DNA of 64,000 nt from an uncultured Gemmatimonadales bacterium (lineage in GTDB: Bacteria > Gemmatimonadota > Gemmatimonadetes > Gemmatimonadales > GWC2-71-9): NCBI GenBank assembly GCA_963844035.1, contig CAWJMT010000003.1:32001-96000 (forward strand). The letters are read 5' to 3'. How positions within the stretch are numbered: the stretch's first letter is position 1; each line of letters begins with the position of its first letter. Shown one piece after another: positions 36,498 to 60,093 of the stretch. The notes below the pieces were generated by a model, which did not search any database, was not told the origin of the DNA, and saw nothing but the letters and a program-made list of their open reading frames with translations. The position numbers and the translations under genes were made by a program.

Positions 36498-37892
36498 ATG
36501 ACCTTGTTTGGAATGGGTGATCCCCGCCCGATTCACTTCATGGGTATTGGAGGCGCGGGGATGAGTGGCTTGGCGCAGCTGGCCAAGCATCAGGGTGTAC
36601 CGATTACCGGATGTGACAACGACCCATCGGGCGCCGCCGATTTGGCAGCCTCGGGGGTGGAGATCTGGCGGGGCCACGATCCTGGGCACGTGGCGGGAGC
36701 TCGTGCCGTAGTGGTGACCGCTGCAGTCGCGGGGCAGCACCCAGAACTAGAACGAGCGCGCGCCCAAGGGATTCCCGTGGTGCGCCGGGCCGACGCCCTC
36801 GGCCAGGCCGTCGCTGGGGGGACCGTGGTGGCGGTGGCCGGGACACACGGCAAGACGACCACCACGGTGATGATTACGGAAGCATTGGCGGCCGCCAGGC
36901 GAAATCCCACGGGACTCGCCGGCGGCCGCGTCGCTCAATGGGGCGGAAACGCCCGGATCGGCGGGCACGATCTCTACGTCGTGGAAGCGGACGAATACGA
37001 CCGCGCGTTCCTGTCGCTCGCGCCGGCGGTAGCGGTGATCAACAACGTGGAGGCGGACCATCTCGAGTGTTACGGATCGCTGGAGGCGCTCGAGCAGGCG
37101 TTCGCCGAGTTCGCGGGGCGGGCGACGCGCGTGATCGTGGGCGCGGACGACGCGGGCGCCCTGCGGGTCGCGGCGGTCCTGAAGGCTCCGGTGTGGCGGG
37201 TCGGCCTCGCGGATGACGCGGAGATCCGGATCAGCGCGGTGGAGCTCGCGCCCCAGGAATCCCGCGCGCAGGTGCGGCTGCCGGACGGCGCGGAGGTGAC
37301 GCTGCGGCTGCGCGTGCCCGGGCTGCACAATGTGCGCAATGCGGCGGCGGCGCTCGCGGTGACTCACGCGCTACAGGCGGACCGCGCGGCGGCGCTCACC
37401 GCGCTGGAGCGGTTCGGCGGCGTGGGGCGGCGGTTCGAGCGGTTGGGAGAGGCGGGCGGCGTGATGATCGTGGACGACTACGCGCACCACCCGACCGAAG
37501 TGCGCGCGACGCTCGCGGCGGCACGGCAAGCGTTCCCACGGCGCCGGCTCGTGGCGGTGTTTCAGCCGCACCTGTTTTCCCGTACCGCGTCGCACGGGGA
37601 AGCGTTGGGCCAGGCGCTGGCGGCGGCCGACGTCGTCGTGGTCGCGCCGATCTACGCGTCACGCGAGCAGCCGATGCCCGGCGTGACAGCGGAGATCGTC
37701 GCGCGCGGTGCGATCCGCGCCGGCGCCGCGACGACCGCGGTGCGCGAGCGCGCGAACGTGACCGACCGGGTGGCGCGGCTGGTGCAGCCGGGCGATGTAG
37801 TGTTCACGCTGGGCGCGGGCGACATCACGCGAGTCGGGCCGGAGCTGATCGAAAGACTGGGCAAGCGGGAAGGGGGAAGAGGGAAGCGTTGA
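36498..37892 (+). CDS. murC: UDP-MurNAc--L-Ala ligase
   Basis: Intact ORF: HFMGIGGAGMSG, AGTHGKTTT, EADEYD, DDYAHHPTEV, FQPH, GAGDI. Confidence 0.97.
   Translation: MTLFGMGDPRPIHFMGIGGAGMSGLAQLAKHQGVPITGCDNDPSGAADLAASGVEIWRGHDPGHVAGARAVVVTAAVAGQHPELERARAQGIPVVRRADALGQAVAGGTVVAVAGTHGKTTTTVMITEALAAARRNPTGLAGGRVAQWGGNARIGGHDLYVVEADEYDRAFLSLAPAVAVINNVEADHLECYGSLEALEQAFAEFAGRATRVIVGADDAGALRVAAVLKAPVWRVGLADDAEIRISAVELAPQESRAQVRLPDGAEVTLRLRVPGLHNVRNAAAALAVTHALQADRAAALTALERFGGVGRRFERLGEAGGVMIVDDYAHHPTEVRATLAAARQAFPRRRLVAVFQPHLFSRTASHGEALGQALAAADVVVVAPIYASREQPMPGVTAEIVARGAIRAGAATTAVRERANVTDRVARLVQPGDVVFTLGAGDITRVGPELIERLGKREGGRGKR
37859..37887 (+). repeat. GGGAAGN heptamer array in the murC tail
   Basis: ACTGGGCAAGC GGGAAGG GGGAAGA GGGAAGC encodes GKREGGRGKR. 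Confidence 0.75.
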
Positions 37893-38632
37893 AGAAGAAG
37901 CGCCAGAGCCGACGCGCGCGACGGAGCGCGGGAGTGGTCGCGGCCGCGGTATTGACCGCGGGGTTGCTGTATGTCGGTGTGCCGCGCGTGCTCGAGCGCA
38001 TCCCGTTCTTCCGCGTGCGGCAGATCGATCTCGTCGGCGTGAAGTACCTGGCGCCCGACGCGCTGATCGCGGCGTTGCGGCTGCCGGCCGGCGCGAGCGT
38101 GTTTGGTGATACGCAGCTGCTGGCCGACCGGCTGAAAGGCGTTACCGGCGTGGCCGACGCCGCCGTGGTCCGGCGGCTGCCCGCGACGCTCGAGGTGAGG
38201 GTGAACGAAGTGGAGCCGGCCGCGTTCGTCCCCGCGACGCGCGGCGGCCGGCTGGTCGCGGTCGATGCCGCGGCGCGCCCGCTGCCCTTTGATCCCGAGC
38301 GTACCGGCCTGGATCTCCCGGTGGTCGCCAGTGCGGATGCCGGCGTGGTGGGGGTGCTCGCGGTGGTGCAGGCGGTGGACCCGGCGCTGTTTCAGCGCAT
38401 CACCGGTGCCCGCGGCTCGAAGCGCGGCGACGTCCTGCTCGAGCTCGACGCCCATCGCGTGCTGCTGCGGCCCGATGCGGGGCCGGACGTGATCCGCGCG
38501 GTGGCGCTCGTGGGACAGGATCTGACCTCCGTGGGACGCCCCTATGCGGAGCTCGACGCGCGTTTCGCCGGACAGGTCGTGGTGCGGCAGCGTGCGGTGC
38601 GGACCGCGGTGCGGACCAAGGGAGGGGTGTGA
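37889..38632 (+). CDS. ftsQ: Cell division protein FtsQ/DivIB
   Basis: TM + POTRA (FFRVRQIDLVG..VVRRLP) and C-terminal LDARF..QVVV; directly upstream of ftsA. Confidence 0.88.
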   Translation: MKKKRQSRRARRSAGVVAAAVLTAGLLYVGVPRVLERIPFFRVRQIDLVGVKYLAPDALIAALRLPAGASVFGDTQLLADRLKGVTGVADAAVVRRLPATLEVRVNEVEPAAFVPATRGGRLVAVDAAARPLPFDPERTGLDLPVVASADAGVVGVLAVVQAVDPALFQRITGARGSKRGDVLLELDAHRVLLRPDAGPDVIRAVALVGQDLTSVGRPYAELDARFAGQVVVRQRAVRTAVRTKGGV

Positions 38633-39885
38633 CGCGGGAGCGGCGGATCGTCGCGGGGCTGGACTTCGGAAGCACCAAGACGTGCGCCGTGATCGCCGAA
38701 GTGGTGGGCGATTGGCCGCGCGCGCCGATCGCCAAGATACTCGGCGTGGGGCTCGCGAAGAACGGCGGTGTGCGGCGCGGCATGGTGCGCGACATCGACG
38801 AAACGACGCGCTCGGTGGTGGCGGCGATGCGCGACGCCGAACGCATGGCGGGCGTCAAAGTCTCCGGGCTGACGTGCGGCGTGGCGGGTGAGCATGTGGC
38901 TGCCCAGCCTTCGACCGGTGTCGTGGCCGTCGGAAGCGACGAGATCACCGCGACGGACGTCGCGCGGGTGAACGAAGTGGCCCGCGCGGTTTCCTTGGCG
39001 AAGGACAGCGAGCTGCTGCACGACATCCCGCAGGAGTACCAGGTCGATCAGCAGCGGGGGATCTCCGATCCGATCGGCATGATGGGCACCCGGCTCGAGG
39101 TGGAGATGTACCTCGTGACGGTGCAGGCGACGGCCGCGCAGAACGTGCGCAAGAGCGTGCAGCGGGCGGGGTACCGCGTGGCGGACCTGGTGCTCGAGCC
39201 GCTCGCGGCTTCATACGCGGTGCTGACGGACGACGAGACGGAGCTGGGCGTCGGGCTGGTGGACGTGGGCGGCGGATCCACGGGGGTCGCGGTCTTTCAT
39301 GACGGAAAGATCCGGCACATCGCGACGATCCAGTATGCCGGGACGCAGGTCACCACCGACCTGGTGCAGGTGCTGGGCGTGACGCAGACCGACGGCGAGC
39401 GTCTCAAGGAGCGGCAGGGCGTGGCGTATGCGCCGCTCGTGGATTCGTCGGAGATGATCGACCTGCCGTCCACGCCCGGGCAGGGTCCGCGCCAGGTGGC
39501 GCGCGAGATGTTGTCGACCATTATCCACGACCGGCTCCACGAGATCTTCGACCTCGTGGGGCGCGAGTTCGAGCGGGCGGGGTTCGGCGGCCAGCGGCTG
39601 CCGGCCGGTGTGGTGTTGACCGGCGGCACGACCCACATGCCGGGCATGGTCGAGCTGGCCCGCGAGTCGTTCGCACTGCCGGTGCGGGCCGGAGTTCCCG
39701 AGCAAGGCATCTCGGGGTTGGTGGACAGCGTGCAGGCGCCCCGCTATGCGGTGGCGACGGGTTTGGTGCTGTATGCGGCGCATCAGCTGGCGCAGGGCGG
39801 CCCGGTGAGCGGGCCGGTGACAGGAAGCGGCGGCGTAGATAAAGTGTTCGGACCGCTCAAACGGTGGCTCCAGGACTTCTTCTGA
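38629..39885 (+). CDS. ftsA: Cell division protein FtsA
   Basis: GLDFGSTK, DVGGGST, GVVLTGG, C-terminal amphipathic helix LKRWLQDFF. Confidence 0.97.
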   Translation: MTRERRIVAGLDFGSTKTCAVIAEVVGDWPRAPIAKILGVGLAKNGGVRRGMVRDIDETTRSVVAAMRDAERMAGVKVSGLTCGVAGEHVAAQPSTGVVAVGSDEITATDVARVNEVARAVSLAKDSELLHDIPQEYQVDQQRGISDPIGMMGTRLEVEMYLVTVQATAAQNVRKSVQRAGYRVADLVLEPLAASYAVLTDDETELGVGLVDVGGGSTGVAVFHDGKIRHIATIQYAGTQVTTDLVQVLGVTQTDGERLKERQGVAYAPLVDSSEMIDLPSTPGQGPRQVAREMLSTIIHDRLHEIFDLVGREFERAGFGGQRLPAGVVLTGGTTHMPGMVELARESFALPVRAGVPEQGISGLVDSVQAPRYAVATGLVLYAAHQLAQGGPVSGPVTGSGGVDKVFGPLKRWLQDFF

Positions 39886-39901
39886 TCGACCCGAGGGAAC
39901 C

Positions 39902-41068
39902 ATGATCTTCGAACTCGAAGAAAGCGTCTCGCAGAACGCGCGCATGAAGGTCGTCGGCATCGGCGGAGGCGGGGGCAACGCGCTCAACCGCATGGTCGAT
40001 GAGGGGCTCCCTGGCGTCGAGTTCATTTCCGTCAACACCGACGCGCAGGCGTTGCTCACCAACAAGTCGGACGTGAAGGTGCAGATCGGCAAGAAGCTCA
40101 CGCGCGGCCTGGGCGCCGGCGCCCGGCCCGAGATCGGCCGCCAGGCGATCGAGGAGAACCGCGACGAGGTGCTGCACGCGCTGCACGGCGCCGATCTGGT
40201 GTTCGTCACTTGCGGGATGGGCGGCGGTACCGGCACGGGCGCGTCGCCGATCATTGCGCAGCTGGCCCGCGATATCGGCGCGCTCACCATCGGCATCGTT
40301 ACCAAGCCGTTCCTGTTCGAGGGACGCAAGCGGATGCGCCAGGCCGAAATGGGCATCGCCGAGATGAAGAAGCACGTGGACACGATGGTGGTGGTGCCGA
40401 ACGAGCGGCTGCTGGCCGTGGTCGGGAAGGGGATCCCGTTCCAGGATGCCCTGAAGAAGGCCGACGACGTGCTGCTGCACGCCACCCAGGGGATCGCCAC
40501 ACTCATCTCCGTCACCGGAATCGTGAACGTCGACTTCGCGGACGTCCGCACGGTAATGCAGAGCGGCGGGTCGGCGATCATGGGGACGGGGACCGGGCGC
40601 GGCGAGAACCGGGCCATGGAAGCGGTGCAGCAGGCGATTTCGAGCCCGCTGCTCGACAACGTCTCCATCACGGGCGCCACGGGAGTGCTGATCAACATCA
40701 CCGGCGGCGAAGATCTCACCCTGGGCGAGGTGACGCAGATCTCCGACGTCGTCAAGGACGCCGCGGGCGAAGAGGCGGAAATCATCTTCGGGACCGTGAG
40801 CGATCCCGCCATGCACGGCGAGATCCGCGTCACCGTGATCGCCACGGGCTTCGACAAGCTGCCCGCGACCACGGATGCGAGCGGCCGGGCGGCGCCCGGC
40901 GTGCTGCCGTTCCGCGAGCGCGCGGCGCGGCCGACGCCCGGCCCCGTGCCCGGGTACGTGAAGCCGGCCGAGACAGGCGGAGTCACCAAGCGTCCGGTGG
41001 CGCAGCCGCCGGTCGCCGACGTCAACGAGCTCGAGATTCCCACCTTCATCCGGCGCCAGATGGACTGA
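39902..41068 (+). CDS. ftsZ: Cell division protein FtsZ
   Basis: GGGGGNA, GMGGGTGTG, NVDFADV, C-terminal peptide LEIPTFIRRQMD. Confidence 0.99.
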   Translation: MIFELEESVSQNARMKVVGIGGGGGNALNRMVDEGLPGVEFISVNTDAQALLTNKSDVKVQIGKKLTRGLGAGARPEIGRQAIEENRDEVLHALHGADLVFVTCGMGGGTGTGASPIIAQLARDIGALTIGIVTKPFLFEGRKRMRQAEMGIAEMKKHVDTMVVVPNERLLAVVGKGIPFQDALKKADDVLLHATQGIATLISVTGIVNVDFADVRTVMQSGGSAIMGTGTGRGENRAMEAVQQAISSPLLDNVSITGATGVLINITGGEDLTLGEVTQISDVVKDAAGEEAEIIFGTVSDPAMHGEIRVTVIATGFDKLPATTDASGRAAPGVLPFRERAARPTPGPVPGYVKPAETGGVTKRPVAQPPVADVNELEIPTFIRRQMD

Positions 41069-42345
41069 TGGCCTGGCGACCCAGCCACTACGTGGCGACC
41101 GCAGCGCTGGCCGCCGCCGGATTGGTCTGGGCCGCGCGGGACGCGTGGCCCGGGCGGCGTCCCCTCGTGGCGCCGCCGATTCGCGTGGCCAACGCCTACG
41201 TCGAGTACGAGCGGGCGTTGGGGCGCTCTGAGACGTTCTCCGATCTCCTGGCGCATGGCGGCATCGTGGGGCACGATCGCAACGCGCTGCTCGCCGCGGC
41301 CACCGACCTTCCGGTGCGCCGGCTGCGCCCGGGCCTCGTTTTCCATTTCCGGCGGTTGCACACCGACAGCGTGGCGGACCGGGTGACCGTACGCGTTTCC
41401 CCGGAGCGGCGGGTGCGTCTCTCCCGTGACGACCCCGGCTGGCGCCAGGTAACCGAAGCGATCCCGTGGTCGCTCACGCGCATGCGGGTGACGGGAACGA
41501 TCGGGACGTCGCTGTACGATGCGTTGGACAAGGCCGTGCCCGACGCCGTGCTGCCGCTGGGCGAGCGGCGCAGCCTCGCGTGGGCGATCGCCGAGGTATA
41601 CGACTGGCAGGTGGACTTCACGCGCGACGTCCACCCGGGCGACCGGTTCCGCGTGTTGTTCGAGCGGCTCGAGTCACCCGAGGGCGAATACCGCTTCGGC
41701 CGCGTGCTCGCCGCCGAGGTGCACGTGGCTCGGGTGCCGGCGTACGCGTTCTCCTTCGCCGCCGACGCGTCGGAGCCCGCGAGCTTCTACGACGAGCGCG
41801 GCCGCTCGCTCAAACGCGCGTTCCTCCGGGCGCCGCTCCAGTTTCGCCGTGTCTCGAGCGGTTTCGGAGCGCGCTACCACCCGCTGCTGCACGTGTGGCG
41901 CACGCATGAAGGCATCGACTTCGCCGCCCCGTATGGCGCGCCGGTGCGTGCCACGGCGGACGGCAGTGTGGCGACGCTGGGGCGCGGCGACCCCGGGTAC
42001 GGCAACCTGATCGAGCTGCGCCACGCGAACGGCATCCGCACGCGCTACGGCCACCTGTCGGGGTTCGCGCGCGGCCTGCGAGTGGGCGACCGGGTGCAGC
42101 AGGGCGAGACGATCGGCTACGTCGGCTCGACCGGGTTATCCACCGGGCCTCATCTCCATTACGAGTTTCTCGTGAACGGCCGGCCGGCCAATCCGCGGCG
42201 CAAGGACATGGGTGCGGGTACGCCCGTCCCCAAGAGTCTCAGCGCCGCCTACGACTCTGTGCGGTTCCACCTGCTCGCCGATCTCGAGACACAGTCTACG
42301 GTCACGCCCACCGCGTCTCCGACCGTCGCCGCGCGCGACGACTAA
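41068..42345 (+). CDS. M23 family peptidoglycan endopeptidase (MepM/Csd3-like)
   Basis: FLRAPL..SSGF..RYHP..HEGIDFAAP..GYGN..YGHL..STGPHLHYE; TGATG overlap with ftsZ. Confidence 0.92.
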   Translation: MAWRPSHYVATAALAAAGLVWAARDAWPGRRPLVAPPIRVANAYVEYERALGRSETFSDLLAHGGIVGHDRNALLAAATDLPVRRLRPGLVFHFRRLHTDSVADRVTVRVSPERRVRLSRDDPGWRQVTEAIPWSLTRMRVTGTIGTSLYDALDKAVPDAVLPLGERRSLAWAIAEVYDWQVDFTRDVHPGDRFRVLFERLESPEGEYRFGRVLAAEVHVARVPAYAFSFAADASEPASFYDERGRSLKRAFLRAPLQFRRVSSGFGARYHPLLHVWRTHEGIDFAAPYGAPVRATADGSVATLGRGDPGYGNLIELRHANGIRTRYGHLSGFARGLRVGDRVQQGETIGYVGSTGLSTGPHLHYEFLVNGRPANPRRKDMGAGTPVPKSLSAAYDSVRFHLLADLETQSTVTPTASPTVAARDD

Positions 42346-42416
42346 TGCCGTTCCAACCTCGTCCGTCTCGGCCTACGGTTGCCCACCTCGTAGGGTTGGA
42401 ACGGCACTAGCTTTTT
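42346..42416 (+). terminator. Long-stem hairpin with T-tract ending the dcw/M23 unit
   Basis: 13-bp perfect stem TGCCGTTCCAACC/GGTTGGAACGGCA, inner CCTACG/CGTAGG pairing, then CTTTTT. Confidence 0.55.
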
Positions 42417-42423
42417 CACCGGT

Positions 42424-43137
42424 ATGGATCTGTATCCCGCCGTCGACGTGCAGGGCGGGCGCGTCGTGCGCTTGCGCCAGGGCGTCGCGGACCAGTCGAC
42501 CGCCTACGCCGACGACCCCGTCGCCGTGGCACAGCAGTTCGGGCGCGACGGGGCTCGCTGGGTTCACTTTGTGGACCTGGACCGCGCCTTCGGGCGCGGC
42601 GACAACCGCGCGGTCGCGCGCGCCTTCCTGGCCGGCATCACCGTGCCGGTGCAGGTCGGGGGCGGCCTCCGCAGCGCCGAGGCCATCGAAGAGATGCTCG
42701 ACTGGGGCGCCACCCGCGTCGTGATCGGCACCAAAGCGGCGACCGATCCCGCGCTGGTAGGGGAACTGCTCGCGCGCCACGGGCCCGACCGCCTCGCCGT
42801 CGGCATCGACGCCAAGGAGGGCCAAGTCGCCGTGCGCGGCTGGACCGAAGTGTTTGATCTCACCGCCCTGCAGCTCGCCGAGCGGGTGTTCGCCCAGGGG
42901 GCGCGCACGGTCATCTACACTGATGTGGCGCGCGACGGGATGCTCACGGGCCCGGATGTCGCGGGGGCGCGGGCCCTCGCGGACCTGGGGTTGAGCGTTA
43001 TCGCGTCGGGCGGGGTCTCGTCGCTCGACGATCTCCGCGCGGTGCGCGCGGCCGGGCTCGCGGGTGCGATCATCGGCCGGGCGCTGTACGAAGGCCGGTT
43101 CACGCTCCCCGAAGCACTGGCATGCGTCGCCACCTGA
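42424..43137 (+). CDS. hisA: ProFAR isomerase
   Basis: YPAVDVQGGRVVRL.QG, HFVDLD.A, QVGGGLR, YTDVARDGMLTG, IASGG, GRALYEG. Confidence 0.95.
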   Translation: MDLYPAVDVQGGRVVRLRQGVADQSTAYADDPVAVAQQFGRDGARWVHFVDLDRAFGRGDNRAVARAFLAGITVPVQVGGGLRSAEAIEEMLDWGATRVVIGTKAATDPALVGELLARHGPDRLAVGIDAKEGQVAVRGWTEVFDLTALQLAERVFAQGARTVIYTDVARDGMLTGPDVAGARALADLGLSVIASGGVSSLDDLRAVRAAGLAGAIIGRALYEGRFTLPEALACVAT

Positions 43138-44910
43138 CGTGGGGACTCGCATTACTGCGAATCACGGGGTGCGCTGCGCTGCTGGTCCTGCTGTGGAATC
43201 CGATTGCCTCCCGCCTGCTCCCCGGCACCGACCCGCCGCTCGTGCTGCTCGACGCTTCGCTCAGCATGGCCGGGCATGGGGGCCGGTGGCGTGAGGCGCT
43301 GGACAGCGCTCGCTCCCTCGCGGGCGGAGGGCGGGGTGGAGTGATCTGGCGGTTCGGCGACCAGGTCGCCGCCTTCGATTCGGGCGCCCCCTCAGATGGA
43401 TCCAGCCGGCTCGGTCCGGCAATCGCGGCGGCCGCCGCCCGCGGCGGACCGATCGCGGTGGTCACGGACGGTGATGTCAGTGACATCGAGACCATCGCTC
43501 CGGACTTGCTGCGCTCGCTACGTATCGTCACCCTCGAACGTCCGGCGTTTTACGATGCCTTCATTGCGACGGTGGAGGGAACGCACCGGATCGCCGCAAC
43601 GGATACGCTGCTCCTGAAGGTCTCGTACGGAGCTACTGGGAAGAGGGAAGAGGGAAGAGGGAAGGGTAAGGCGTTGCTCGTGGTGACATCGGAGGGGCGG
43701 CGACTAGCCTTCCGCGAGGTGTCTCTCCCCGACAGCGGTATCGTTGCCACCGAGATCACGCTTCCCGCTTCCCGCTTCCCTCTTCCCGGTTGGCACGTTC
43801 TCGATGTTCGCTTGCAAGCCGCTCCCGACCCCGAACCGCGAGATGACGGGCGCCTATTCCTGGTGGAAGTGAACCCGACGCCGTCGGTGGTCGTGCTCGC
43901 GAGCCCGCCCGACTGGGACCTGCGCTTCTTCGCGCGCACCCTGGCAGACGTGGCGCGGGTGCCGGTGACGGTGTTCGTCGAGACCGAGCCAGGGAATCCG
44001 GCGCGCGGCCACTGGCGGGACGCGGCCTCGTTGACCGCGGCACCAGCGGGCGCCGTCGAGCGCGCGGTAGCGGGGGCGCGGCTCATCGTCGAGGGCGGTG
44101 ATCCCGCGGGATTCGGGCGGGTGGCCGCGGCGGCCGATCGGGCGCGCCTGCGCTGGCCGACCGTGGGCGGGCTCGCCGGGGAGTGGTACGTGGACCCGCC
44201 GCCGCCTTCGCCCTTCGCCGCCGGGCTCGGCGGATTGGCGTGGGATTCCCTGCCGCCGGCGGTGGGAGTGATCCCGACGGTCGCCGGACAGCACCACGCT
44301 CGTCGCGTTGACGGCGCGGCTCGCGCGGCGCGGGGCCGCGCGCCCGGTGGTGCTCTTGTCGGAGCGCGGGGGCTCGCGTCACGCGCAGGTCGCGGCGGTG
44401 GGGCTGTACCGCTGGGCGTTTCGCGGCGGCGCGAGCGCGGAAGCCTATCGGGCGCTGGTGGCAGAGATCGCGAATTGGCTCTTGGGGGAAGAGGGAAGAG
44501 GGAAGAGGGAAGGGGTGACGCCGGTGGCGCGTGTGGTTGCGAACGGGCTGCCCGTGGTGTGGCGCTGGACCGGTGCGGGTCCGCCGCACGACTTGACGCT
44601 GACCCTACGCTCGAGCGGCGGCGAACGGCGCGACACGCTGCGGTTCGACGCCGCGGGCGAGGCGGCGCTCGTCGTGCCGCCCGCCGTCTATCACTACACA
44701 ATTGACGGAGGACCGGAACGCGGCATGATCGCGGTCGAGACCTACTCCGATGAGTGGCGCCCTGCCGCAGCCGCGCTCGCGCCGCAGGCCGGAGTGCCGG
44801 CGGGACGCTTCGCGACGGTGAGCATGCGGGACCATTGGTGGCTGTTCGCGCTCGCGATCGCCGCATTCGTGGCGGAGTGGGTGTGGCGCCGCCGGCTGGG
44901 GTTGCCCTGA
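43122..44910 (+). CDS. vWA-like (MIDAS) membrane protein
   Basis: N-terminal TM, LLDASLSM (DxSxS) and VVTDG; C-terminal TM ending AEWVWRRRLGLP; one frameshift near 44290. Confidence 0.7.
43638..43670 (+). repeat. (GGGAAGA)3-GGGAAGGGTAAG array inside the vWA gene
   Basis: Encodes GKREEGRGKGK. Confidence 0.85.
43760..43787 (-). repeat. Inverted GGGAAGN x4 array inside the vWA gene
   Basis: (G/T)CTTCCC x4 encodes LPASRFPLP. Confidence 0.85.
44486..44513 (+). repeat. GGGAAGA x4 array inside the vWA gene
   Basis: Encodes GEEGRGKREG. Confidence 0.85.
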
Positions 44911-45777: not shown

Positions 45778-45811
45778 GGGGACGAGGGACGGGGGAAGGG
45801 GGACGGGTACG
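45778..45811 (+). repeat. GGGGACG-type heptamer x4 in the ftsY-recG spacer
   Basis: GGGGACG AGGGACG GGGGAAG GGGGACG GGTACG. Confidence 0.8.
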
Positions 45812-45817
45812 TGCCTA

Positions 45818-47885: not shown

Positions 47886-47889
47886 GAGC

Positions 47890-47948
47890 GGTGTCAGGTG
47901 TCAGGTGTCGAGTGCAGCTCTGACACCTGGCACCTGACACCTGACACC
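47890..47948. repeat. Inverted pair of GGTGTCA heptamer arrays (hairpin) after recG
   Basis: GGTGTCA GGTGTCA GGTGTCG - loop - TGACACC TGGCACC TGACACC TGACACC. Confidence 0.85.
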
Positions 47949-47958
47949 TGCGCTCTCG

Positions 47959-47987
47959 TTGACAGTCCCCACCACCGCCCGTAGAAT
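47959..47987 (+). promoter_or_regulatory. Near-consensus sigma70 promoter TTGACA-17-TAGAAT for asnS
   Basis: Direct match, 9 nt before ATG 47997. Confidence 0.78.
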
Positions 47988-47996
47988 GCCGCCCCT

Positions 47997-49297: not shown

Positions 49298-49339
49298 GAA
49301 CCGCCTTCCCCCGTCCGTTCCTTTGCTGCACTATCCCCA

Positions 49340-50551
49340 ATGATGGGTGAGCCTCACATCTTCGGCCAGCACGAGCCCAACACGCTCGAACAGCTGCGCG
49401 ACGTGGCGAGCCGCGCCGACCGAGCCGCCCTCATGGCCGACGGCCATCTGGGCTACGTGATGCCGATCGGCGGCGTCGCGGCGTATCGGGACAAGGTCTC
49501 GGTCGTCGGGGTGGGCTTCGACATCGCGTGCGGCAACGCCGCGATTCGCACGGACCTCACCACGTCGCAGCTTGCCGGCCGCCTGGGCCAGCTCGCGGAC
49601 GAGATTCAGACCACCATTTCGTTCGGGGTGGGCCGGAAGAATCGGGCGGACGACGCGCCGACCGACGATCCCCTGTTCGACGATGCCGCGTGGGACGCAG
49701 TCCCCGGCCGGCACGAGCGGGACCAGCTGCGGAGCAAGGCACGCGCCCAGCTCGGCACGGTGGGCAGCGGGAATCACTACGTCGACGTGTTCGCCGACGA
49801 AGCGGACCGGATCTGGGTGGGCGTGCATTTCGGCTCGCGCGGGTTCGGCTTCGGCGTGGCGCGGGGCTTCCTCGCGCTGAGCCAGAACATGGCGTGGGGT
49901 CAGCGCGCGCCCGAGCGCGAGACCCTGCTGGACGTGCGGCAGCCGCTGGGCGACGCCTATTGGCAGCTGATGACGCTGGCCGGACGGTACGCGTACGCCG
50001 GCCGCGAGTGGGTCGCGCGCAAGGTGGTCGACCTGCTCGGCGGTCGAGAGATCGAGCTGGTGCACAACCACCACAACTTCGCGTGGGTCGAGCAGCACGG
50101 CGGTGAGTCGCTCTACGTCGTCCGCAAGGGAGCGACGCCGGCGTTCCCGGGCCAGAAGGGGTTTGTGGGCGGCTCGATGGGCGACGACGCGGTCATCATT
50201 CGGGGTGCTGAGTCGCCGGATGCTGCGGTGCGGGAGCTGCAAGCGCGCGCCCTGTTCTCCACGGTGCACGGCGCAGGGCGGGTGATGAGCCGCACGCAGG
50301 CGGCGGGGAAGCGCACGCGGCGCGGGAAGGTGATCAGCCCGGGGATCATCTCTGCGGACATGATGCACGACTGGGTGCGGGAGAAGAACGTCGTGTTGCG
50401 GGGCGGCGGCACCGACGAAAGTCCCCACGTCTATCGCCGGTTACCGGACGTCCTCGCCGCTCAAGGCCCGACGATCGAGGTGCTGCATACGCTGCGTCCG
50501 CTGATCGTCGTGATGGCGGGGGCGGAGGAAGTGGATCCGTACAAGGATTGA
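49340..50551 (+). CDS. rtcB: RtcB RNA ligase
   Basis: MADGH.GY, DIACG, LGTVGSGNHY, HFGSRG, HNH, RKGATP, GSMG, HGAGR. Confidence 0.95.
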   Translation: MMGEPHIFGQHEPNTLEQLRDVASRADRAALMADGHLGYVMPIGGVAAYRDKVSVVGVGFDIACGNAAIRTDLTTSQLAGRLGQLADEIQTTISFGVGRKNRADDAPTDDPLFDDAAWDAVPGRHERDQLRSKARAQLGTVGSGNHYVDVFADEADRIWVGVHFGSRGFGFGVARGFLALSQNMAWGQRAPERETLLDVRQPLGDAYWQLMTLAGRYAYAGREWVARKVVDLLGGREIELVHNHHNFAWVEQHGGESLYVVRKGATPAFPGQKGFVGGSMGDDAVIIRGAESPDAAVRELQARALFSTVHGAGRVMSRTQAAGKRTRRGKVISPGIISADMMHDWVREKNVVLRGGGTDESPHVYRRLPDVLAAQGPTIEVLHTLRPLIVVMAGAEEVDPYKD

Positions 50552-50598
50552 CGGGAAGGCGGGTGGGCGGGCAGGCGGGTAGCAGGTTGACCAGCCGC

Positions 50599-51353
50599 CT
50601 ACCTGTCTCCTTTCACCTCATCCCACAACGCATCCAGCTCCGCCAGGCTCGCCCGTCCCAGCTCCAGCCCGCGCTCCTGCGCCAGGCGTCTCCACCTCCT
50701 CAAACCGTCCTCTGAACTTCTCGTTCGCCCGCTCGAGCGCGGCGCCGGGGTTGATCGAGAGTTTGCGAGCAAGATTCACCACGGCGAACAGCAGATCGCC
50801 GATCTCATCCTCGATCGCGTCATGTTGTCCGTTGCCCGTTGCCACTTCGACCTCAGCGATCTCTTCCTTCACCTTGTCCAGCGGTCCCTTGCGCGTCGGG
50901 CCAGTCGAATCCCACACCAGCGGCGCGCTCTTGAAGTCGGTAGGCCATGAGCAGCGGGGGCAGGGTGGGAGGTAGCCCCGCGAGCGTCTTACCCTTCCCG
51001 CTTCCCTCTTCCCGCTTCCCCAGTTCCCAGGATGCAGGTTTCTCCCCGCCCCCGAACAGGTGGGGATGGCGCCGCCACATCTTCGTCTCGAGCGCGTGCG
51101 TGACCGCCTCGGCGTCGAGCGTGCCGCGCTCCTCGCCGATCACGATCTGAAACGCGAGGTGCAGCAGCAGGTCGCCGAGCTCGTCGCGCACCTCGCCGGG
51201 ATCGTCTCGACGGATCGCCTGATCGAGCTCGAGCACCTCTTCGACGAGGTAGGGGCGCAGGGTCGCAGGGGTCTGCGCGCCGTCCCACGGGCACCGCGCG
51301 CGCAGGTCGCGCACGAGTGCGACGGCACGTCCAAGCGCTGAATCGCCTTGCAT
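50599..51353 (-). CDS. mazG: MazG nucleoside triphosphate pyrophosphohydrolase
   Basis: LRARCPWD..QT..LRPYLVEE, ELGDLLL, RRHPHLF, VGFDWP, EDEIGDLLFAVVN, ANEKF..RF; frameshifted. Confidence 0.94.
50988..51024 (-). repeat. GGGAAGN x4 array inside mazG
   Basis: Minus strand ACTGGGGAAGCGGGAAGAGGGAAGCGGGAAGGGTAAG encodes LGKREEGSGKGK. Confidence 0.85.
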
Positions 51354-51399
51354 TTAGCCTCCGGGCCGGGTATCATACGCGCGCCTGTGAACGTGTCAA
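51348..51399. promoter_or_regulatory. Overlapping divergent sigma70 promoters for alr (+) and mazG (-)
   Basis: + strand TTGCAT(51348)-17-TATCAT(51371-76); - strand TTGACA(51399-94)-16-TATGAT(51377-72); GGAGG SD before mazG. Confidence 0.65.
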
Positions 51400-52477: not shown

Positions 52478-52508
52478 CAGGCGGGCAGGCGGCAGGCGGG
52501 TAGGCGGC
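52478..52508 (+). repeat. CAGGCGG(G) short tandem array after alr (similar array at 50557-50582 after rtcB)
   Basis: CAGGCGGG CAGGCGG CAGGCGGG TAGGCGG. Confidence 0.65.
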
Positions 52509-52601
52509 ACAGCGAGGCGGCAGCGGGGTTCTAGGAGTGGCTCGGGAAGGGCAGGTCGATCTTGCGGGGGATCCGGACATGAGCGCGGAGCAAGCGAGCG
52601 G

Positions 52602-53901
52602 GTGCGGGATTTGACGGGCCGGGCGAGGCGCGCGATACGCGGCGCTGAGCCTCGTGCTCGTCCTGACGGCGTGCGCGGAGAAGTTGACCGCTCCGGGGTA
52701 CTGCCCCGATTTCTGCACCAGCAGCTCGCTCACCATGACCGACACCATCCTCCCCGGCGCGATCACCGAGGACTCCGCCTTCAGCCGGCCGAACGGGTAT
52801 GTGAATCCGGACGACGCCGGCTACCTGCTCGCGGTATCCACTCCGGAGCGGGAAAGCCGCCCGATTTTCCGGTTCCCCGCGGTCTCGAATCGACTCGGCA
52901 TTGGCACGGACACGACGACCGCGGTGCTCGTCGGCGCCGACTCCGCGCGCTTGGCGATTACCATCACGCGCCGCGACACGGCCGTCGACCTGACCGTGTC
53001 GCTGTACGCGCTGCCGCTCACCATCGACACGACGACCGCGTTCCACGACCTGGATGGCGCCTTCGCCGGCCCCGCCGTGCGCACCGTGAATCTGGACTCC
53101 CTGCTGGCCAAATCGGCCGCCCCGTGTGCGGGTTTTCCCTGCTACTTCGACCCGGTCACCCACGATAGCGCGTTCTTGGATAAGGCGAACGACCGGGTGT
53201 TCCTGAGGATGGCGCTCGACACCCTCCAGGTGCCCCTCGTGCTGGGGGACACGGGCAAAGTCGCCTTCGGGATTCGCGTCAGCGGGAACGGCCCGACGAG
53301 CACCGCGATCGGCGCCCGGGAGCGCCAAGGCCTGGGTCCATTGTTCACGTGGTACGTGCGGATGGACTCGGCCAGCCAGAAGATCATCCACGTCTCGCGG
53401 CCGGCGGCCCTATCCTCCTTCGACAGCTTCGTGTTCGACCCGCCGAGCCTGCCGATCGGCTCCGACCTGGTGATCGGAGGGGTGCCCTCCGTCCGCACGA
53501 TCATGCGGATTGCGCTGCCCCGCGCCATCCGCGACTCGTCGCGCATCGTGCGCGCCACCCTCGAGTTCATCGCCGCCGCCCAGCTCGTGGGCACCGCCGC
53601 CGACGCGTTTCCGGTCATCGCGGCGCCGGTGCTCGCGGACTTCGGGGCCAAATCGCCGCTCGCGCCCGCGTTCAACGACACGACCCAGTTCGCCATCGCG
53701 CCGATCGACACGGTGCTCATCGACGTGACCAGCGTGCTCACCTACTGGACACTCGATAACCGGCGGCCCACCACGCTCGTGCTGCAGCAGATTCCCGAGG
53801 GAACGAACTTCGCGGAGCTGCGGTTGCACAGCTCCGCCAGCGTGGGCCAGGGTCCCCGGCTGCGCATCACGTACGCGCCGCGCTACCCGATCTCGCCGTG
53901 A
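52602..53901 (+). CDS. Lipoprotein of unknown function (beta-rich)
   Basis: Lipobox VLVLTA-C; long intact ORF ending GPRLRITY; start approximate. Confidence 0.7.
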
Positions 53902-55004
53902 TGCCGTTCCGCCGCGTCACCTTGATCGCCGCCTTCCTGCTCGCCGGGGCGCGCGCCGTCCAGGCGCAGGATTCGCAGTTCGGCATCCGCGGGGGCGGAA
54001 CGCCCGGGCGGCCTGAGAGCGTGCGCGCCCGCTCGACCGGGGGCGCGTTCGCGGCGTTCGACGCCGCGTCGGCCGTCGCGGACGTCTCGATCGCCGAGGC
54101 GCGGGTGCTCACGGCGACGACGATGGGCGCGTCCTATTTCCGCCAGGTGACCCTGCCGAACGCCACGACCGACCTGACCAGCACGCGGTTTCCGCTCCTG
54201 ACCCTGGTCGGGGCGGCGTCGAGCCGCGTGCGGATCGCCGGCGGGTACAGCACCTACCTGGAGGACAGCTACGTCATCACCACGCTCGACAGTGCGGTGG
54301 TGCGCGGCGACATGGTCCGGTTTATCGACCAGTCCGCGAGCGACGGCGGGAGCAGCGATCTGCGGATCTCGACCGCGGTGCGGGTCACCCCGACGTTCAC
54401 GCTCGGCGTCGGTCTGCACGCGATCACCGGCTCCGCACGCATCAGCATGACGCGCACCTTCTTCAATCCGGACTACGCCACCGTGCAGGATTCGCAGACG
54501 GTGCGCCAATCCGGGTTCGGTGTGTCGGCGAGCGCCCTGTTCCGCATGTCCCCGGCTCTCACGATCGTCGCGTTCGGCCGCGCGGACGGTCACACGAAGA
54601 AGAAGATCGACGAAGTCCGGGTGGCTGATACCGACCTCCCGAACATGGTCGGCGGTGCGGTACGGCTGATCCTGGGTCCGCTGGTGCGCGCGGCCGGATC
54701 GGTCGCATGGCGCGAGTGGACCAGCGTGAACGCCCCCGACACCTACAACACCCTCAACTACACGGCCGGCCTGGAGCTCGGGTCGGAGGGAAACGGGCTC
54801 CGCATCGGCGGGCGCTATGGCCAGCTGCCGTTCGGCCCGGGAGGGAGCGCGCCCACGGAATGGGGAGTGGCTGCCGGTTTCGGGCGCGTCATCGCGCGCG
54901 GGCATGCCGTCCTCGACTTCGGGGCCGAGCGGGTGGTCCGCGAAGGCACGACGCTGCACGAAGGGATCTGGACCCTGCTGTTCGGCCTCAGCATCCGGCA
55001 ATGA
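53898..55004 (+). CDS. Predicted outer-membrane beta-barrel
   Basis: Signal peptide (AVQA-Q), RARSTGG.., alternating amphipathic strands, C-terminal LLFGLSIRQ. Confidence 0.7.
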   Translation: MMPFRRVTLIAAFLLAGARAVQAQDSQFGIRGGGTPGRPESVRARSTGGAFAAFDAASAVADVSIAEARVLTATTMGASYFRQVTLPNATTDLTSTRFPLLTLVGAASSRVRIAGGYSTYLEDSYVITTLDSAVVRGDMVRFIDQSASDGGSSDLRISTAVRVTPTFTLGVGLHAITGSARISMTRTFFNPDYATVQDSQTVRQSGFGVSASALFRMSPALTIVAFGRADGHTKKKIDEVRVADTDLPNMVGGAVRLILGPLVRAAGSVAWREWTSVNAPDTYNTLNYTAGLELGSEGNGLRIGGRYGQLPFGPGGSAPTEWGVAAGFGRVIARGHAVLDFGAERVVREGTTLHEGIWTLLFGLSIRQ

Positions 55005-56235
55005 ACGTTTTCTTCCATACCTTCGGCTGCCGGGCGAACCAGTACGATACGGAAGTGGTACGGCAGGCCCTCGCGGACCGCGGGGCGGCGGTGGTGGACG
55101 ATCCGGCCGCGGCCGATGTCGCGGTGGTCAACTCCTGCACCGTCACCGAGGAGAGCGAGATCAAGCTGCGGCGCTTCGTGCGCCGGCTGGCGCGCCGCGC
55201 CGACGGCCGGCCGCTCGAGACCGTCGTCATGGGCTGCGCCGCGGCGCGCGATGACGGCACGCTGCGCGCCCTCCCTTCCGTACGGGCCGTGGTTGCGGGT
55301 GCCGACACGGCGGCGGTGCTCTCGGCGGTCGGGTTCGCCGTGCCGCGCGTGGACCCGGTGCTGCGGCGCTTCGGTTCGAACCACCGCGGCTGGCTCAAGA
55401 TCCAGGACGGTTGCGACGAGCACTGCAGCTTCTGCGCGACCACGCTCGCCCGCGGCGCGAACCGGTCGCGCCCGATCGCGGAGCTGGTGCAAGAGGCAAA
55501 GGCACTCGCGCAGCATCATGCAGAGATCGTGCTGACGGGAGTCCATATCGGGACGTATGGCCAAGACGGGAAGGGGGAAGAGGGAAGGGGGAAGGGTACT
55601 CCCTCGGCGAGCTGCTCGAAGCCCTCATTTCTGCCGTGCCCGATGTTCGGTTCCGCCTTTCATCCATCGAAGCCACCGAGATCGACGACCGCATTGCGCA
55701 CCTCTTGATCGAAGAGCCACGGCGGCTCGCGCCCTACCTGCACGCGCCGCTGCAATCGGGATCGAACCGGGTGCTGCGCCGCATGGGGCGGCACTGGTAC
55801 ACGGCCGAGTCGTACCGCGCGCGGCTGGAATGGCTCGCGGCGCGGCTTCCGGTGTTCGGGCTCGGCGCCGATGTGATCGCGGGATTCCCCGGTGAGACCG
55901 ATGCCGACCACCAGGACACGATGATGCTCCTCCGGGCGCTGCCGTTCACCGCGCTGCACGTGTTTCCCTATAGCCCGCGGCCCGACACGGCTGCGACCCG
56001 CTTGGGGGACGACGTGCCGCCGGGGGCGATCCGGGTGCGGGCGGCGGAGCTGCGGACGCTCGGGGACGCCAAGGCGCGGGCCTATCGGGCCAGCCGCGTG
56101 GGCGCGATGGCCGACGGCGTCGCGAGCGGCCGCGTGGCGGGGCGGGTGGACGTGCTCACCGAGGACTATCTCTCGGTGTACATTCCCGTCGAGCACTGGG
56201 ATGGCGCGCCCCGATTCCCGGTGAAGGTGGCCTAG
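55001..56235 (+). CDS. mtaB: tRNA t6A37 methylthiotransferase (radical SAM)
   Basis: TFGCRANQYD, NSCTVT, KIQDGCDEHCSFC, LTGVHIG.YG, SSIE, HVFPYSPR; frameshift at the heptamer insert. Confidence 0.9.
55568..55599 (+). repeat. GGGAAGN x4 array inside mtaB
   Basis: GGGAAGG GGGAAGA GGGAAGG GGGAAG GGTAC. Confidence 0.85.
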
Positions 56236-56236
56236 T

Positions 56237-57554
56237 ATGCCCCGCGTGTACATCGAGACCTACGGCTGTCAGATGAACGTCGCCGACTCCGAGCTGATGC
56301 TCGGGTTGCTCGGCGCGAACGGGTACGAGCGCATCGACGATCCCGCCCTCGCGGACGTGATGCTCGTGAACACCTGCGCGGTGCGCGACCACGCGGAGCA
56401 GCGCGTGCTCGGCCGGGTGGGCGAGCTGAAGCGCCACAAGCGCGCCGGCGACGTGCTGGGCGTGGTGGGATGCATGGCGCAGCGGCTCGGCCCCAAGCTG
56501 CTCGAGCGCGTGCCGCAGGTGGATCTCGTCATCGGCCCCGACGGCTACCGCAACCTCCCCGAATTGATCGCCCGTGCGCAGAGCGGCACCCGGGCCGCGG
56601 ACGTGGAGTTCCGCGGCTGGGAGCACTACGAGGACGTGCCCGCGGCGCGCGGCGACGCGGCCTCCGCGTTCGTCACGGTGCAGCGCGGCTGCGATTATCG
56701 GTGCACCTTCTGCATTGTTCCGATGACGCGCGGGCCGGAGCGGAGCCGCATGTTGGCCGACGTGGTGCGCGAGGTGACCTCCGTCGCCGCGCGCGGTGCG
56801 ACGGAGGTGACGCTCCTTGGGCAGACGGTCAATAGTTATCACGACGGCACGCACGATTTCGCCGATCTGCTGCGCGCCGTCGGTGCCGTGGCGGGGATCC
56901 GGCGCGTGCGCTTCACATCGCCGTACCCCACCGACTTCACCGCCCGGGTGCTGGCCGCCATGGCCGAGACGCCCACCGTGTGCGAGCACGTCCACCTGCC
57001 GGTCCAGAGCGGCTCGAACCGCACCCTCAAGCGGATGCTGCGTCGCTACACGCGCGAGCGCTATCTCGAGGTGGTCGCGGAGCTGCGGGCGGCCATCCCG
57101 GCGATCGCGTTCTCGACCGATCTCATCGTGGGGTTCCCCGGCGAGACCGAGGACGACTTCGCGGAGACGATGTCGCTCGTCGAAGCCGCAGGGTTCGACG
57201 ACGCGTACACATTCAAGTTCTCGCCCCGCGACGGCACCCCGGCGCTGCGACTCCCGGACACCGTGCCGGACGACGTGGCCTCCGAGCGCCTCGCGCGGCT
57301 CATCGCGGTGGTGCGCGGCGTGGGGCGCGTCAAGAACGCGGCGCTCGTCGGCACCACGCACGAGGTGCTGGTCGAAGGACCGGCGAAGCGCGGCGAGCTG
57401 CTGCAGTCGCGCACCCGCACCAACAAGATCGCGCTGCTCGCGGGGCCGGTGGAGTGGATCGGGACCTACCGCACGCGTGCGGTTCAGCGGCACGACCGGC
57501 TCGACGTTCACCGCCGTACCGCTCGAAACGCCACAGGAGGTTGCCGCATGGTGA
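56237..57554 (+). CDS. miaB: tRNA i6A37 methylthiotransferase
   Basis: TYGCQMNVADSE, NTCAVR..AE, GCMAQ, GCDYRCTFCIVP.TRG.ERSR, HLPVQSG, TRAM domain. Confidence 0.95.
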
Positions 57555-57832
57555 CGAACGTGACGCTCGAGGTGGTGCAGCGCGAGTACCTCCAGCTGCG
57601 CGAGCGGCTCCCGAAGTTCTGCGGCTGCGCGACCTGCCACGGCGACGTGACGGTGTACGCGCTGAACCGCCTGGCGCCGCACTACGTGTCCACGCGGGAA
57701 GGCGAAGTGTTGACCGAGCTGTCGCTCGGCAGCGACCAGGAGAAGGCCAAGCTCGACGTGGCATTGCTCGAAGCGTTCCGCAAAGTGGGTCTCGCGCCCC
57801 GCTGCGGCGCCAAGCCGGTGCAGCTCCTCTAG
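57548..57832 (+). CDS. ComFB-family protein (candidate cyclic dinucleotide receptor)
   Basis: MVTNVTLEVV..FCGCATCHGDV..YALNRLAPHYVS..GE; own SD AGGAGG. The ORF track fuses it to miaB only through an indel. Confidence 0.85.
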   Translation: MVTNVTLEVVQREYLQLRERLPKFCGCATCHGDVTVYALNRLAPHYVSTREGEVLTELSLGSDQEKAKLDVALLEAFRKVGLAPRCGAKPVQLL

Positions 57833-57849
57833 ACCGCTAAGGCGGCCCG

Positions 57850-60093
57850 GTGCGGCCGCCGATCCTGTTCCTCACAATTGGTTTTGCGCTAGGCCTCGCC
57901 CTTGGGGAAGGGGGACGGGGGATGGGGGACGGGTACGTCGTAGGGCCCGTCCTGCTTACCGCGGCGCTTCTATTTCGGCGCGCGCCGGTGGGCGCGGGCG
58001 TGGGGATCATGGGGGTGGCGGGCGTCCTGTGGGGATCGGCAGCGGTCAGCGCTCGCGCGGCGACCTGCGCCGGCCGCTGGAAGGACGGTAGCACCCGCGC
58101 TGCCATCGTACGCCTGTTGGATCCGGCGTCGGAGGGCGGCACAGTGGTGGAGGCGGAGGTCGTCCGCGGGAAAGAGTGCGGCGGCGGATTGCGGGTTCGT
58201 TGGCCGGACCATCCGGCGGCTGCTGGCGGCACGACATGGGTGGTGGCGGGACGCTGGGCGGCGCTCGGGGAAGGGCGGGGCGTGCTGGTCGCGCGGCGGG
58301 TGAAGCTGCTCGACCCCGTGCCGCGCGGGCGCGGTGCGCTTGCGCGGCCGGGTGATGACGCGCGCCACGGAGTTGTTCGGAAGCCGCGCGCGGCTGGTGC
58401 AAGCCCTCGTGATCGCCCCGGGTGTGGCGCTCGAGCCTGACGTGCGGGAGCGGTACGCGCGCTCGGGACTTGCCCACCTCCTCTCTATCTCCGGGTCTCC
58501 ACGTGGGGTTTCTCGCCGTGTGGCTGGGCGCCGCGCTCGGCCTGATGGGCGCACGCGGGCCGGCGCGTCTGTGGGCTACGTCCGCGGTCGTGATCGGCTA
58601 CATCTGGCTGCTCGGGTTTCCGGCGCCGGCCACGCGCTCGGGAGTGATGCTGGTGCTCGACGCGGTGGCACGCTGGCGCGAGCGGGTGGTCGCACCCCGC
58701 GGCGTGCTCAGCGTGACCGCCCTGTTGCTGTTACTTGCGGACCCCTGGGCGCTGCAATCGGTGGGTGCGTGGCTGTCACTCGGCGCCGTCGCCGCGGTGA
58801 TCTGGGGCGCGCGCGCCGCTGCGGACACTGCCGCGCTTCGCGCGGGTGGTCGTCCCGTCGCATCGCCGCGACGCTGTTCACGGCGCCGATCACCGCGCTC
58901 GCGTTCGGCACGGTCGCGCCGATCGGCGTGGCCGCCAACCTGGTCGCCATCCCAATCGCCGGGATCGCCGTGCCGGGGCTCGTGGTTGCGCTCGTCACAT
59001 CGTGGTTCGCACCACCGCTCGCGGGCTGCTCGCGGCGGGCTCGGGTCTCGGGCTTGCGCTGCTCGACGTGGTGGCGCGCGCCGCCGCCGCCGTTCCGGGC
59101 GGGCACGTGGTGACGGTGGCAGGCTGGAGTGCGGCTGGGGTCTGGCTCGCCGTCGCGTTGGTGGCATGGTGGCTGTGGCATTCGCCGCGGCGCCGCTGGG
59201 TGATCGTGGGACGCGTGGCTTTTGTGGCATGCGGCGTGGCATGGCTCTCGGTCGCGGGCGCTAGCGGCTCCGTCCCTCGACGCATGTCGCTGTGTCACAG
59301 TACATTTTCTCGACGTCGGCCAGGGAGACGCCGGGCTGCTGCGCACGCCCGCGGGCCGGTGGATCGTGATCGACGGGGGGCCGCTGACCCCTCAGGGTGA
59401 TGCGGGAACGCGCGTGGTCGTGCCGTTCCTGCGTCGCATGGGGGTCGAGCGGGTGGCGGTGGTGGTCGCGACCCACGGCGACGCCGATCACCTGGGGGGC
59501 ATTCCGGCGGTCGTGACGGCGTTCGCGCCCGACCTGGTGCTCGAGCCGGGCGAGCCGCTGGGCCGGCCGCACTATCTGCGGTTCCTGGCAACCGTCGAGG
59601 CGTCGCGAGCGCGCTACCGCGCGGCGCGCGCCGGCGACCGGATCGTGCTCGACGGCGTGACGCTCGAGGTCTTGAGTCCGGACAGCGCGCTGTTCGCGCT
59701 TCCCCTCGACGTGAACGAGCATGGCGTGGTGCTGCGCGTGACCTACGGCGACGTGCGGCTGCTGTTTCAGGCCGACGCCGGGTTGCCGGTGGAGCAGCAT
59801 CTCGCGGGCCAGGTGGGGCGGGTGGAGCTGCTCAAGGTGGGGCACCATGGCTCCCGCACCGCCACCTCGGACGCGTGGCTCGTCGGAGCTCGCGCCGCGC
59901 CAGGCGGTGATCAGCGTGGGGCGGCACAACAACTACGGACACCCCGCGCCCGAAGTCGTGGCGCGGTTGGCGCGGCACAGGATCGCGATATTGGAGAACC
60001 GATCGCGACGGAACTGTCACCTTTACCACGAACGGACAACGTGAACAGACAGACATCAGAGGTCAGACATCAGGTGTCAGGCGTCAGAACTGA
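57850..60093 (+). CDS. comEC: DNA uptake channel ComEC/Rec2 with metallo-beta-lactamase domain
   Basis: GLAHLLSISG.HV, RSGVM, ANLVAIP, FLDVGQGDA, IDGG, THGDADHLGG, KVGHHGS, SVGRHNNYGHP. Confidence 0.93.
57904..57937 (+). repeat. GGGGANG heptamer x4 inside the comEC 5' end
   Basis: GGGGAAG GGGGACG GGGGATG GGGGACG GGTACG encodes GEGGRGMGDGY. Confidence 0.8.
60050..60091 (+). repeat. CAGNNNT heptamer x6 in the comEC C-terminus
   Basis: CAGACAT CAGAGGT CAGACAT CAGGTGT CAGGCGT CAGAACT. Confidence 0.78.

Follow-up and report, generated by a model that had tools for sequence, protein, structure and literature searches.

Why should short tandem arrays of one G-rich heptamer lie inside unrelated proteins? 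The question is raised by a 64,000-nucleotide stretch of an uncultured Gemmatimonadales soil bacterium (GenBank GCA_963844035.1, contig CAWJMT010000003.1, positions 32,001 to 96,000), called the window here. A first-pass annotation reported eight four-unit arrays in it and proposed a templated, spreading element rather than independent slippage. Our results suggested that each array is one of many scattered copies of a module, about 30 nt long, which matches the inverted arms of one clade of four-helix-bundle genes, that the copies were written over local DNA as the gene or its arms specify, that selection has restricted them to loops, tails and gene junctions, and that they decay after the cassette is lost. 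We give this reading a probability of about 0.5. Short tandemly repeated repetitive (STRR) sequences of cyanobacteria are related heptamer repeats.

Results

A polar four-unit module inside and between genes

The source assembly (G000; 3.47 Mb, 84% complete, with many frameshifts) holds the window at C3:32001-96000; relatives are numbered from G001, and C and L numbers denote contigs and loci. All eight arrays were present, with four units each in register:

murC C-terminal tail: 37860..37889, + strand (units 37860-37887); four units and GT; peptide GKREGGRGKR; runs into the stop codon
vWA-like gene, left arm of a convergent pair: 43638..43667, + strand (units 43638-43665); four units and GT; predicted beta-hairpin loop, residues 78-85 of the modelled fragment
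vWA-like gene, right arm of the pair: 43758..43787, - strand (units 43760-43787); four units and GT; 95 bp from the left arm; coding strand reads LPASRFPLPG
vWA-like gene, C-terminal part: 44486..44513, + strand; four units; peptide GEEGRGKREG
ftsY-recG spacer: 45779..45808, + strand (units 45779-45806); four units and GT; intergenic
mazG: 50991..51020, - strand (units 50993-51020); four units and GT; peptide WELGKREEGSGKGK; overlaps a conserved W-E-x-x-K-x-x-E stretch
mtaB, loop after HIGTYG: 55568..55597, + strand (units 55568-55595); four units and GT; assembly frameshift at the 5' edge of the array
comEC, near the N-terminus: 57905..57934, + strand (units 57905-57932); four units and GT; peptide LGEGGRGMGDGY

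Seven of the eight copies are coding and the ftsY-recG copy is intergenic. Host genes were named by profile matches (murC, ftsY/recG, mazG, mtaB, comEC), except the gene first labelled vWA, which had no Pfam or NCBIfam match in the profile search and is called vWA-like.

Across G000, 81 arrays of at least three GGGA(A/C/T)G(A/C/G) units were found on both strands, compared with 0 and 2 in two trinucleotide shuffles. Four units were counted in 61 arrays, three in 15, five in 5 and six or more in none. After removal of three duplicated C17 copies, GT followed the last unit in 55/78 arrays (3.9 expected) and GTA in 28/78; with those copies included, 57/81 arrays had the GT end. The recurring flanks quoted in the first-pass annotation were present in the window, but genome-wide only the 3' GT end was conserved: ACT preceded 7/78 arrays (0.9 expected), CTT 3/78 (0.8 expected), and neither was found in 68/78. 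The unit consensus was degenerate, with GGGA fixed and positions 5 and 7 free, and 74/81 arrays had distinct sequences. Units within one array were homogenised (position 5 concordance 0.63 vs 0.46). Array pairs within 400 bp were convergent in 11 cases, tandem in 2 and divergent in 0. The module is thus polar and about 30 nt long, four GGGAnGn units followed by GT.

Array density increased with GC content and was unusually high in the window, with seven loci in 20 kb (mean 0.42). A genome-wide Markov-model classifier, which is noisy and defeated by frameshifts, placed only 10/81 arrays confidently in frame and left the majority unassigned. The near-identical peptides that were reported for non-homologous enzymes follow from translating one repeat in few tolerated registers. 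One of them, GKGEEGRGKG of mtaB, is probably off-frame, given the frameshift at the 5' edge of that array; the same site in G001, G002 and G005 reads ..E(G/E)GxGxGEG...

Such frameshifts, one at the mtaB array and many others in the assembly, could mean that error-prone long reads produced the arrays as artefacts of basecalling or assembly. Separately assembled relatives carry them in register at the same sites with open frames, and 16/61 genomes have at least six modules, so that this explanation can be dismissed as having a negligible chance of being right.

Modules mostly overwrite existing loops

Most array sites were common in register within a clade of 14 genomes on the tree. Whether orthologs carry these segments ancestrally has therefore a divided answer: often they do within the clade, and outside it the segments are absent. 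Array positions were loops, tails and gene junctions. In the mtaB, MazG and vWA-like alignments the net gain was about 0-7 residues. The left-arm loop of the vWA-like gene measured 20 aa vs 15-16 aa in nine distant relatives; compared with array-free relatives, the right-arm segment had 17 aa vs 15-16 aa, the C-terminal array segment 18 aa vs 16-17 aa, and the W-to-LP segment of MazG 20 aa vs 17-21 aa, with W-E-x-x-K-x-x-E still encoded. As judged from these alignments, the right arm of the vWA-like pair overwrites an ancestral loop, and within genes the module mostly replaces existing loop sequence. The DNA between the paired arms is ancestral coding sequence, and at the second vWA-like site ancestral x-L-P codons already supply one unit-like seed in several outgroups. 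Insertion into loops had been expected, and both paired arrays indeed fell in loops of a predicted beta-sandwich domain.

The other sites varied among relatives. At mtaB, GGGA-type arrays were seen in 6/29 relatives and a reversed array of another family in 1, making at least four distinct configurations among the 29. The comEC array stood in the same register in G002 and G006, and three-unit gains and losses were seen in G004. By eye, murC tail arrays were also found in G006, G009 and G017 (3/20 relatives). A contig about 96% identical to the window on both sides differed by 116 letters across the murC tail and the ftsQ start (window 37847-37962), and the murC-ftsQ array site is therefore hypervariable.

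At the ftsY-recG junction, 8 of 16 matched relatives had an empty TGATG overlap, while G002 had a clean gain of 31 bp without duplication. Short-read contigs about 90% identical lacked a net 27 bp there; the contigs compared were relatives about 85-96% alike, all from one study, and do not represent within-strain polymorphism. At the same place upstream of recG, the distant relatives L165 (G021) and L166 (G013) carried unrelated heptamer families, and by these sequences the recG junction looks like a recurrent array hotspot.

The clean gain in G002 against the empty overlap in eight relatives, the net 27 bp missing from the short-read contigs of one study, and the defined length and 3' end of the module are what would be expected of a classical miniature inverted-repeat transposable element (MITE) or a Rickettsia-palindromic-type element, inserted cleanly by a transposase from one template. 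Such an element should leave a target duplication, but none was found at the G002 insertion, and duplications of at least 4 bp accompanied 5/81 arrays in G000 vs 5.4 in shuffles. The arrays also have no unique internal sequence, the DNA between paired arms is ancestral host sequence, and none of the four Y1-transposase loci in G000 had an array within 700 bp. Clean insertion from one template is unsupported, because target duplications are absent, 74/81 sequences are distinct, the 5' flank has no motif, and relatives share most coding sites in register, with a net gain far below 28 nt. This explanation is improbable overall and largely refuted for coding sites.

Paired arms are replaced in place

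G000 holds long homologous segments, 85-97% identical (C1/C17, C3/C35, C12/C23, C13/C32 and C9/C30), which reflect strain or species mixing beyond the 3% contamination estimate. In one such segment, 87% identical, two ksgA copies (C12:1056-1160 and C23:48872-48985; L301 and L300) carried a GGTGTCA pair and a GGGAAG pair, respectively, in the same two loops, which flank a conserved GDAL-x-x-x-W strand. The downstream protein was 96% identical between the two copies. In homologous segments of 85-91% identity, two further sites swapped octamer families, and one array differed at position 7 of all four units with conserved flanks.

Beyond the second G000 copy, the ksgA comparison took in the 30 best loci of 121 genomes; one was dropped (G017, contig end), giving 30 scored loci. 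Both arms were present in 20/30, and the arm units were within one base of each other in 20/20 (permutation mean 8.6). About seven unit types were found; some were only one or two bases apart, whereas GGTGTCA and GGGAAG were further apart. Within the genus, ksgA carried GGTGTCA, GGGAAG, GGAATGC, GGAACGC or nothing, and sister pairs starred on the tree differed in family. The tree had many unsupported forks and G016 was mislabelled by nearest-reference assignment; arm concordance and the starred sister pairs were used rather than the count of 18 'changes'. In every case the new unit belongs to a genome-wide family, which local slippage cannot account for and which seems to require a source in trans. 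We infer that arrays change sequence where they stand, the unit being dictated from elsewhere.

Other repeat families and convergent pairing

Besides GGGA, seven other 7- and 8-mer families were defined in G000, and the three largest share the four-unit mode. It was found in families without GGG tracts, namely GGTGTCA (31/42) and GGCGGTYR (32/54). Among the 258 arrays of all eight families, close neighbours (<300 bp) were convergent in 50/53 cases, 46 of them of the same family, with 3 tandem and 0 divergent. A hairpin is predicted for the vWA-like and ksgA transcripts. Exact copying of one arm from the other was considered and rejected, as GGGA, GGTGTCA and GGCGGTYR pairs showed no in-register excess; GGCGGGAA pairs had a modest one (13/45, p=0.013).

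Two members of other families lie in the window. The recG-asnS junction (47890-47948) contains a convergent GGTGTCA pair of 3 and 4 units, 11 bp apart, and the cognate four-helix-bundle gene of this family is at G000:C27:104682-104955. A single four-unit array of a GGCGGG-type octamer (50550-50581) stands just 3' of a gene which we take, from its translated open reading frame (ORF), to be RtcB-like.

These data bear on whether a host process independent of four-helix-bundle genes, such as slippage with fold-back copying, possibly favoured by G-quadruplexes (G4) or hairpins, could have produced the arrays, the genes merely collecting arms. By sequence, 70/78 arrays match the canonical G4 motif, and passages of Rehm et al. 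2015 (PMC4692102) describe a four-unit preference and G4 folding for GGGAATC. The homogenised units within arrays, the three-unit changes in G004 and the missing cognate gene in G000 would also fit. G4 as the cause of four units was rejected, for it does not cover the four-unit GGTGTCA and GGCGGTYR families, and slippage explains neither why swapped arms land on genome-wide families nor why, inside a single genome, the arm unit goes with the protein clade (see below). A purely host-driven origin is unlikely.

The array unit follows a clade of four-helix-bundle genes

A search for a linked transposase, reverse transcriptase or four-helix-bundle gene had been suggested, and the last of these was found in relatives. 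In G000, inverted arms flanked the seven TIGR02436 loci; the arms belonged to four or five other dispersed families and never to GGGA. The relatives of these loci were Gemmatimonadales records. Of 86 four-helix-bundle proteins placed on a tree, 23 formed one clade (SH-aLRT 94; motif EGYxLG/A) with GGGA arms: 18/23 by strict matching and 3 more, degenerate, by eye, compared with 2/63 outside the clade. The arms of clade loci L193 and L205 end in GGGAAG-GGTA, as in the window arrays.

The clade gene was present in 9/61 genomes, all 9 among the 16 with at least six full modules, and in 0/45 module-poor genomes. Two more of the 16 had another four-helix-bundle gene with GGGA arms. The units were GGGAAGC in G004, GGGATG(C/G) in G025, GGGATT(C/G) in G016 and GGGAG(A/G)C in G033, and by eye the dispersed unit equalled the arm unit in 22/36 non-arm matches in G016 and 35/42 in G033, with G004 and G025 likewise. 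G003, 100% complete and nested among array-bearing genomes, had no four-helix-bundle gene, no modules and array-free ksgA loops. Because of the four-unit mode, the GT end, strictly convergent pairing, in-place family swaps and this gene link, the first-pass claim holds in so far as the unit is specified from elsewhere; its other half, clean insertion from one template, does not.

The unit was not always heptameric among four-helix-bundle genes, as L249 and L250 (Anaerolineales), L079 and L083 had arms with a 9-base period. The cyanobacterial genes L240, L255 and L261 were flanked by very long arms of >10 units, and the four-unit limit is therefore not universal.

The predicted fold of the clade protein was close to 2GSC (template-modelling score, TM, 0.86), with Avd of diversity-generating retroelements (DGRs) more distant at TM 0.73-0.77 (4DWL 0.73, 8UB7 0.76). 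A ring protein of this kind (homopentamer according to passages of PMC4990558) would suit about four units, so the arrays might be sites at which a four-helix-bundle or other host protein binds DNA or RNA, maintained and adjusted by selection, with mutation and slippage supplying the sequence. The degenerate consensus with GGGA fixed, the 74/81 distinct arrays, the persistence of sites across the clade and the disappearance of arrays in G003 are all consistent with this. It is harder to reconcile with ksgA, where switching both arms between GGTGTCA and GGGAAG needs tens of changes beside a downstream protein 96% identical, or with several families that coexist and replace each other, and no host benefit is evident inside ksgA, mazG or murC. 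We consider binding sites doubtful, though somewhat more probable than the host process above.

Several observations weigh against writing directed by the clade gene or its arms. The gene was not found in G000 by TIGR02436, tblastn or two custom profiles, which returned only the seven other loci, and no GGGA-armed PF05635 ORF was found there. G000 has an empty site at C31:75087-75110, between genes presumed from their translations to be aminotransferase-like and Xaa-Pro-peptidase-like, where G002, G006, G017 and G026 carry a GGGA-armed cassette. Four other module-rich genomes lack the clade gene too, among them G014 (97% complete), which had no four-helix-bundle gene at all. As most clade-positive genomes are close kin, the association of gene and module rests on few independent cases. 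In G016 and G006 the unit in the vWA-like gene differs from that of their own cassette arms. The base after GT did not follow the unit subtype (p=0.75), no flank was co-copied from cassette arms, and by eye no exact arm copy was seen among 150 of the 198 G006 and G017 modules. Compared unit by unit, the two arms of a pair matched each other no better than random arrays did (10/41 against 0.19, p=0.22). Reverse transcriptase (PF00078) was not found in G000 or in 5/5 array-rich relatives that are 94-100% complete. We know of no catalytic activity of the four-helix-bundle protein.

Discussion

How the modules are written can be proposed as follows. A new module would replace the sequence already present at its site, in many cases where a chance seed or an earlier array exists, and probably through repair, or through template switching, at a nick. 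Unit and length may be fixed by the protein, whose solved relatives are pentamers, or by the arm DNA, and a second, inverted arm would tend to arise just past the GT end. Purifying selection would keep only copies with a tolerated translation, and hence the near-identical peptides; slippage may add or remove three units in frame, and arrays would decay after cassette loss. It is most likely that the copies arose as selfish by-products and not as adaptations of the host.

The closest known arrays are the G-rich heptamers of Xanthomonas (GGGAATC) and Nostoc (GGGGA(C/T)T) described in passages of Rehm et al. 2015 (PMC4692102), which share the 7-nt unit, the four-unit preference, occurrence on both strands, convergent pairs and G4 compatibility; relative G016 even carries a near-identical GGGATT(C/G) unit. 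According to the same passages, most of those heptamers lie between genes (7-11% are intragenic in Xanthomonas), and G4 is given as their explanation; here, 7/8 window copies are coding, the module has a defined 3' end, families without GGG tracts also favour four units, and the unit tracks a four-helix-bundle clade. Some of the TAACTGA repeats of Beggiatoaceae, which come in sets of 2-6 copies, are also found within ORFs, where they occupy termini or, in an RNA polymerase beta-prime-like protein, a surface loop (passages of MacGregor 2015, PMC4679880), but those passages describe neither a four-helix-bundle link nor in-place family replacement.

The 23S rRNA intervening sequence of Coxiella burnetii has an S23p ORF with heptamers upstream and inverted ends (passages of PMC4990558). 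The cassettes of the relatives of G000 resemble it in having an ORF of the same family (PF05635/TIGR02436; structures 2GSC, 2RLD) between inverted ends. They lie between protein genes and not in 23S rRNA, and the window arrays are gene-less and lie in or between protein genes, where cutting of an essential mRNA by RNase III would come at a cost.

Rickettsia palindromic elements (RPEs), insertions of about 150 bp according to passages of a review of prokaryotic MITEs (PMC10969869), are likewise dispersed repeats read in frame in unrelated housekeeping proteins with a recurring peptide. The present arrays differ in being tandem modules of 30 nt; they show no target duplication, and for the most part they take the place of loops and change family in situ. 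Unlike MITEs, most are single, and paired arms enclose ancestral host sequence rather than element-specific sequence. A small gene flanked by its own repeat family, which is also dispersed, recalls the repetitive extragenic palindromic (REP) sequences and their REP-associated tyrosine transposases (RAYTs), but no RAYT or other Y1 transposase was found beside the arrays. The predicted fold is shared with Avd of DGRs, unlike which no reverse transcriptase was found in 6 genomes. The arrays thus fall outside MITEs, RPEs, REP/RAYT systems and DGRs.

Four-unit heptamers with convergent pairs, heptamers in ORFs and, in a single intervening sequence, heptamers next to an S23p ORF are already known (passages of PMC4692102, PMC4679880 and PMC4990558, respectively). 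What is new is the clade-specific unit, its match to the dispersed arrays of each genome, and the in-place family replacement of paired arms; in the literature searched, with subscription papers and supplements outside its scope, no paper described the clade-to-unit link or in-place swaps.

A wider proposal, tentative and much less probable than our reading of the window, is that four-helix-bundle (S23p/IVP) proteins are specificity factors of a hitherto undescribed DNA-rewriting system. Each clade would dictate a 7- or 8-base word, of which about four copies are written over the chromosome, as single arrays or in paired arms, and neither transposase nor reverse transcriptase would take part. 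Bacterial heptamer repeats would originate from such a system, which would also create new loop peptides in essential enzymes time and again.

To our knowledge, PF05635 proteins have solved structures and no assigned function. In many bacteria no long simple repeats are more common than heptamers, whose origin is still to be explained (passages of PMC4679880 and PMC4692102). The clade-to-unit code makes both the origin of the heptamers and the function of PF05635 experimentally testable. As the in-place swaps in ksgA show, loop residues of conserved enzymes are set again and again by a DNA repeat whose unit is not a triplet, a point to bear in mind when protein alignments from array-bearing lineages are read.

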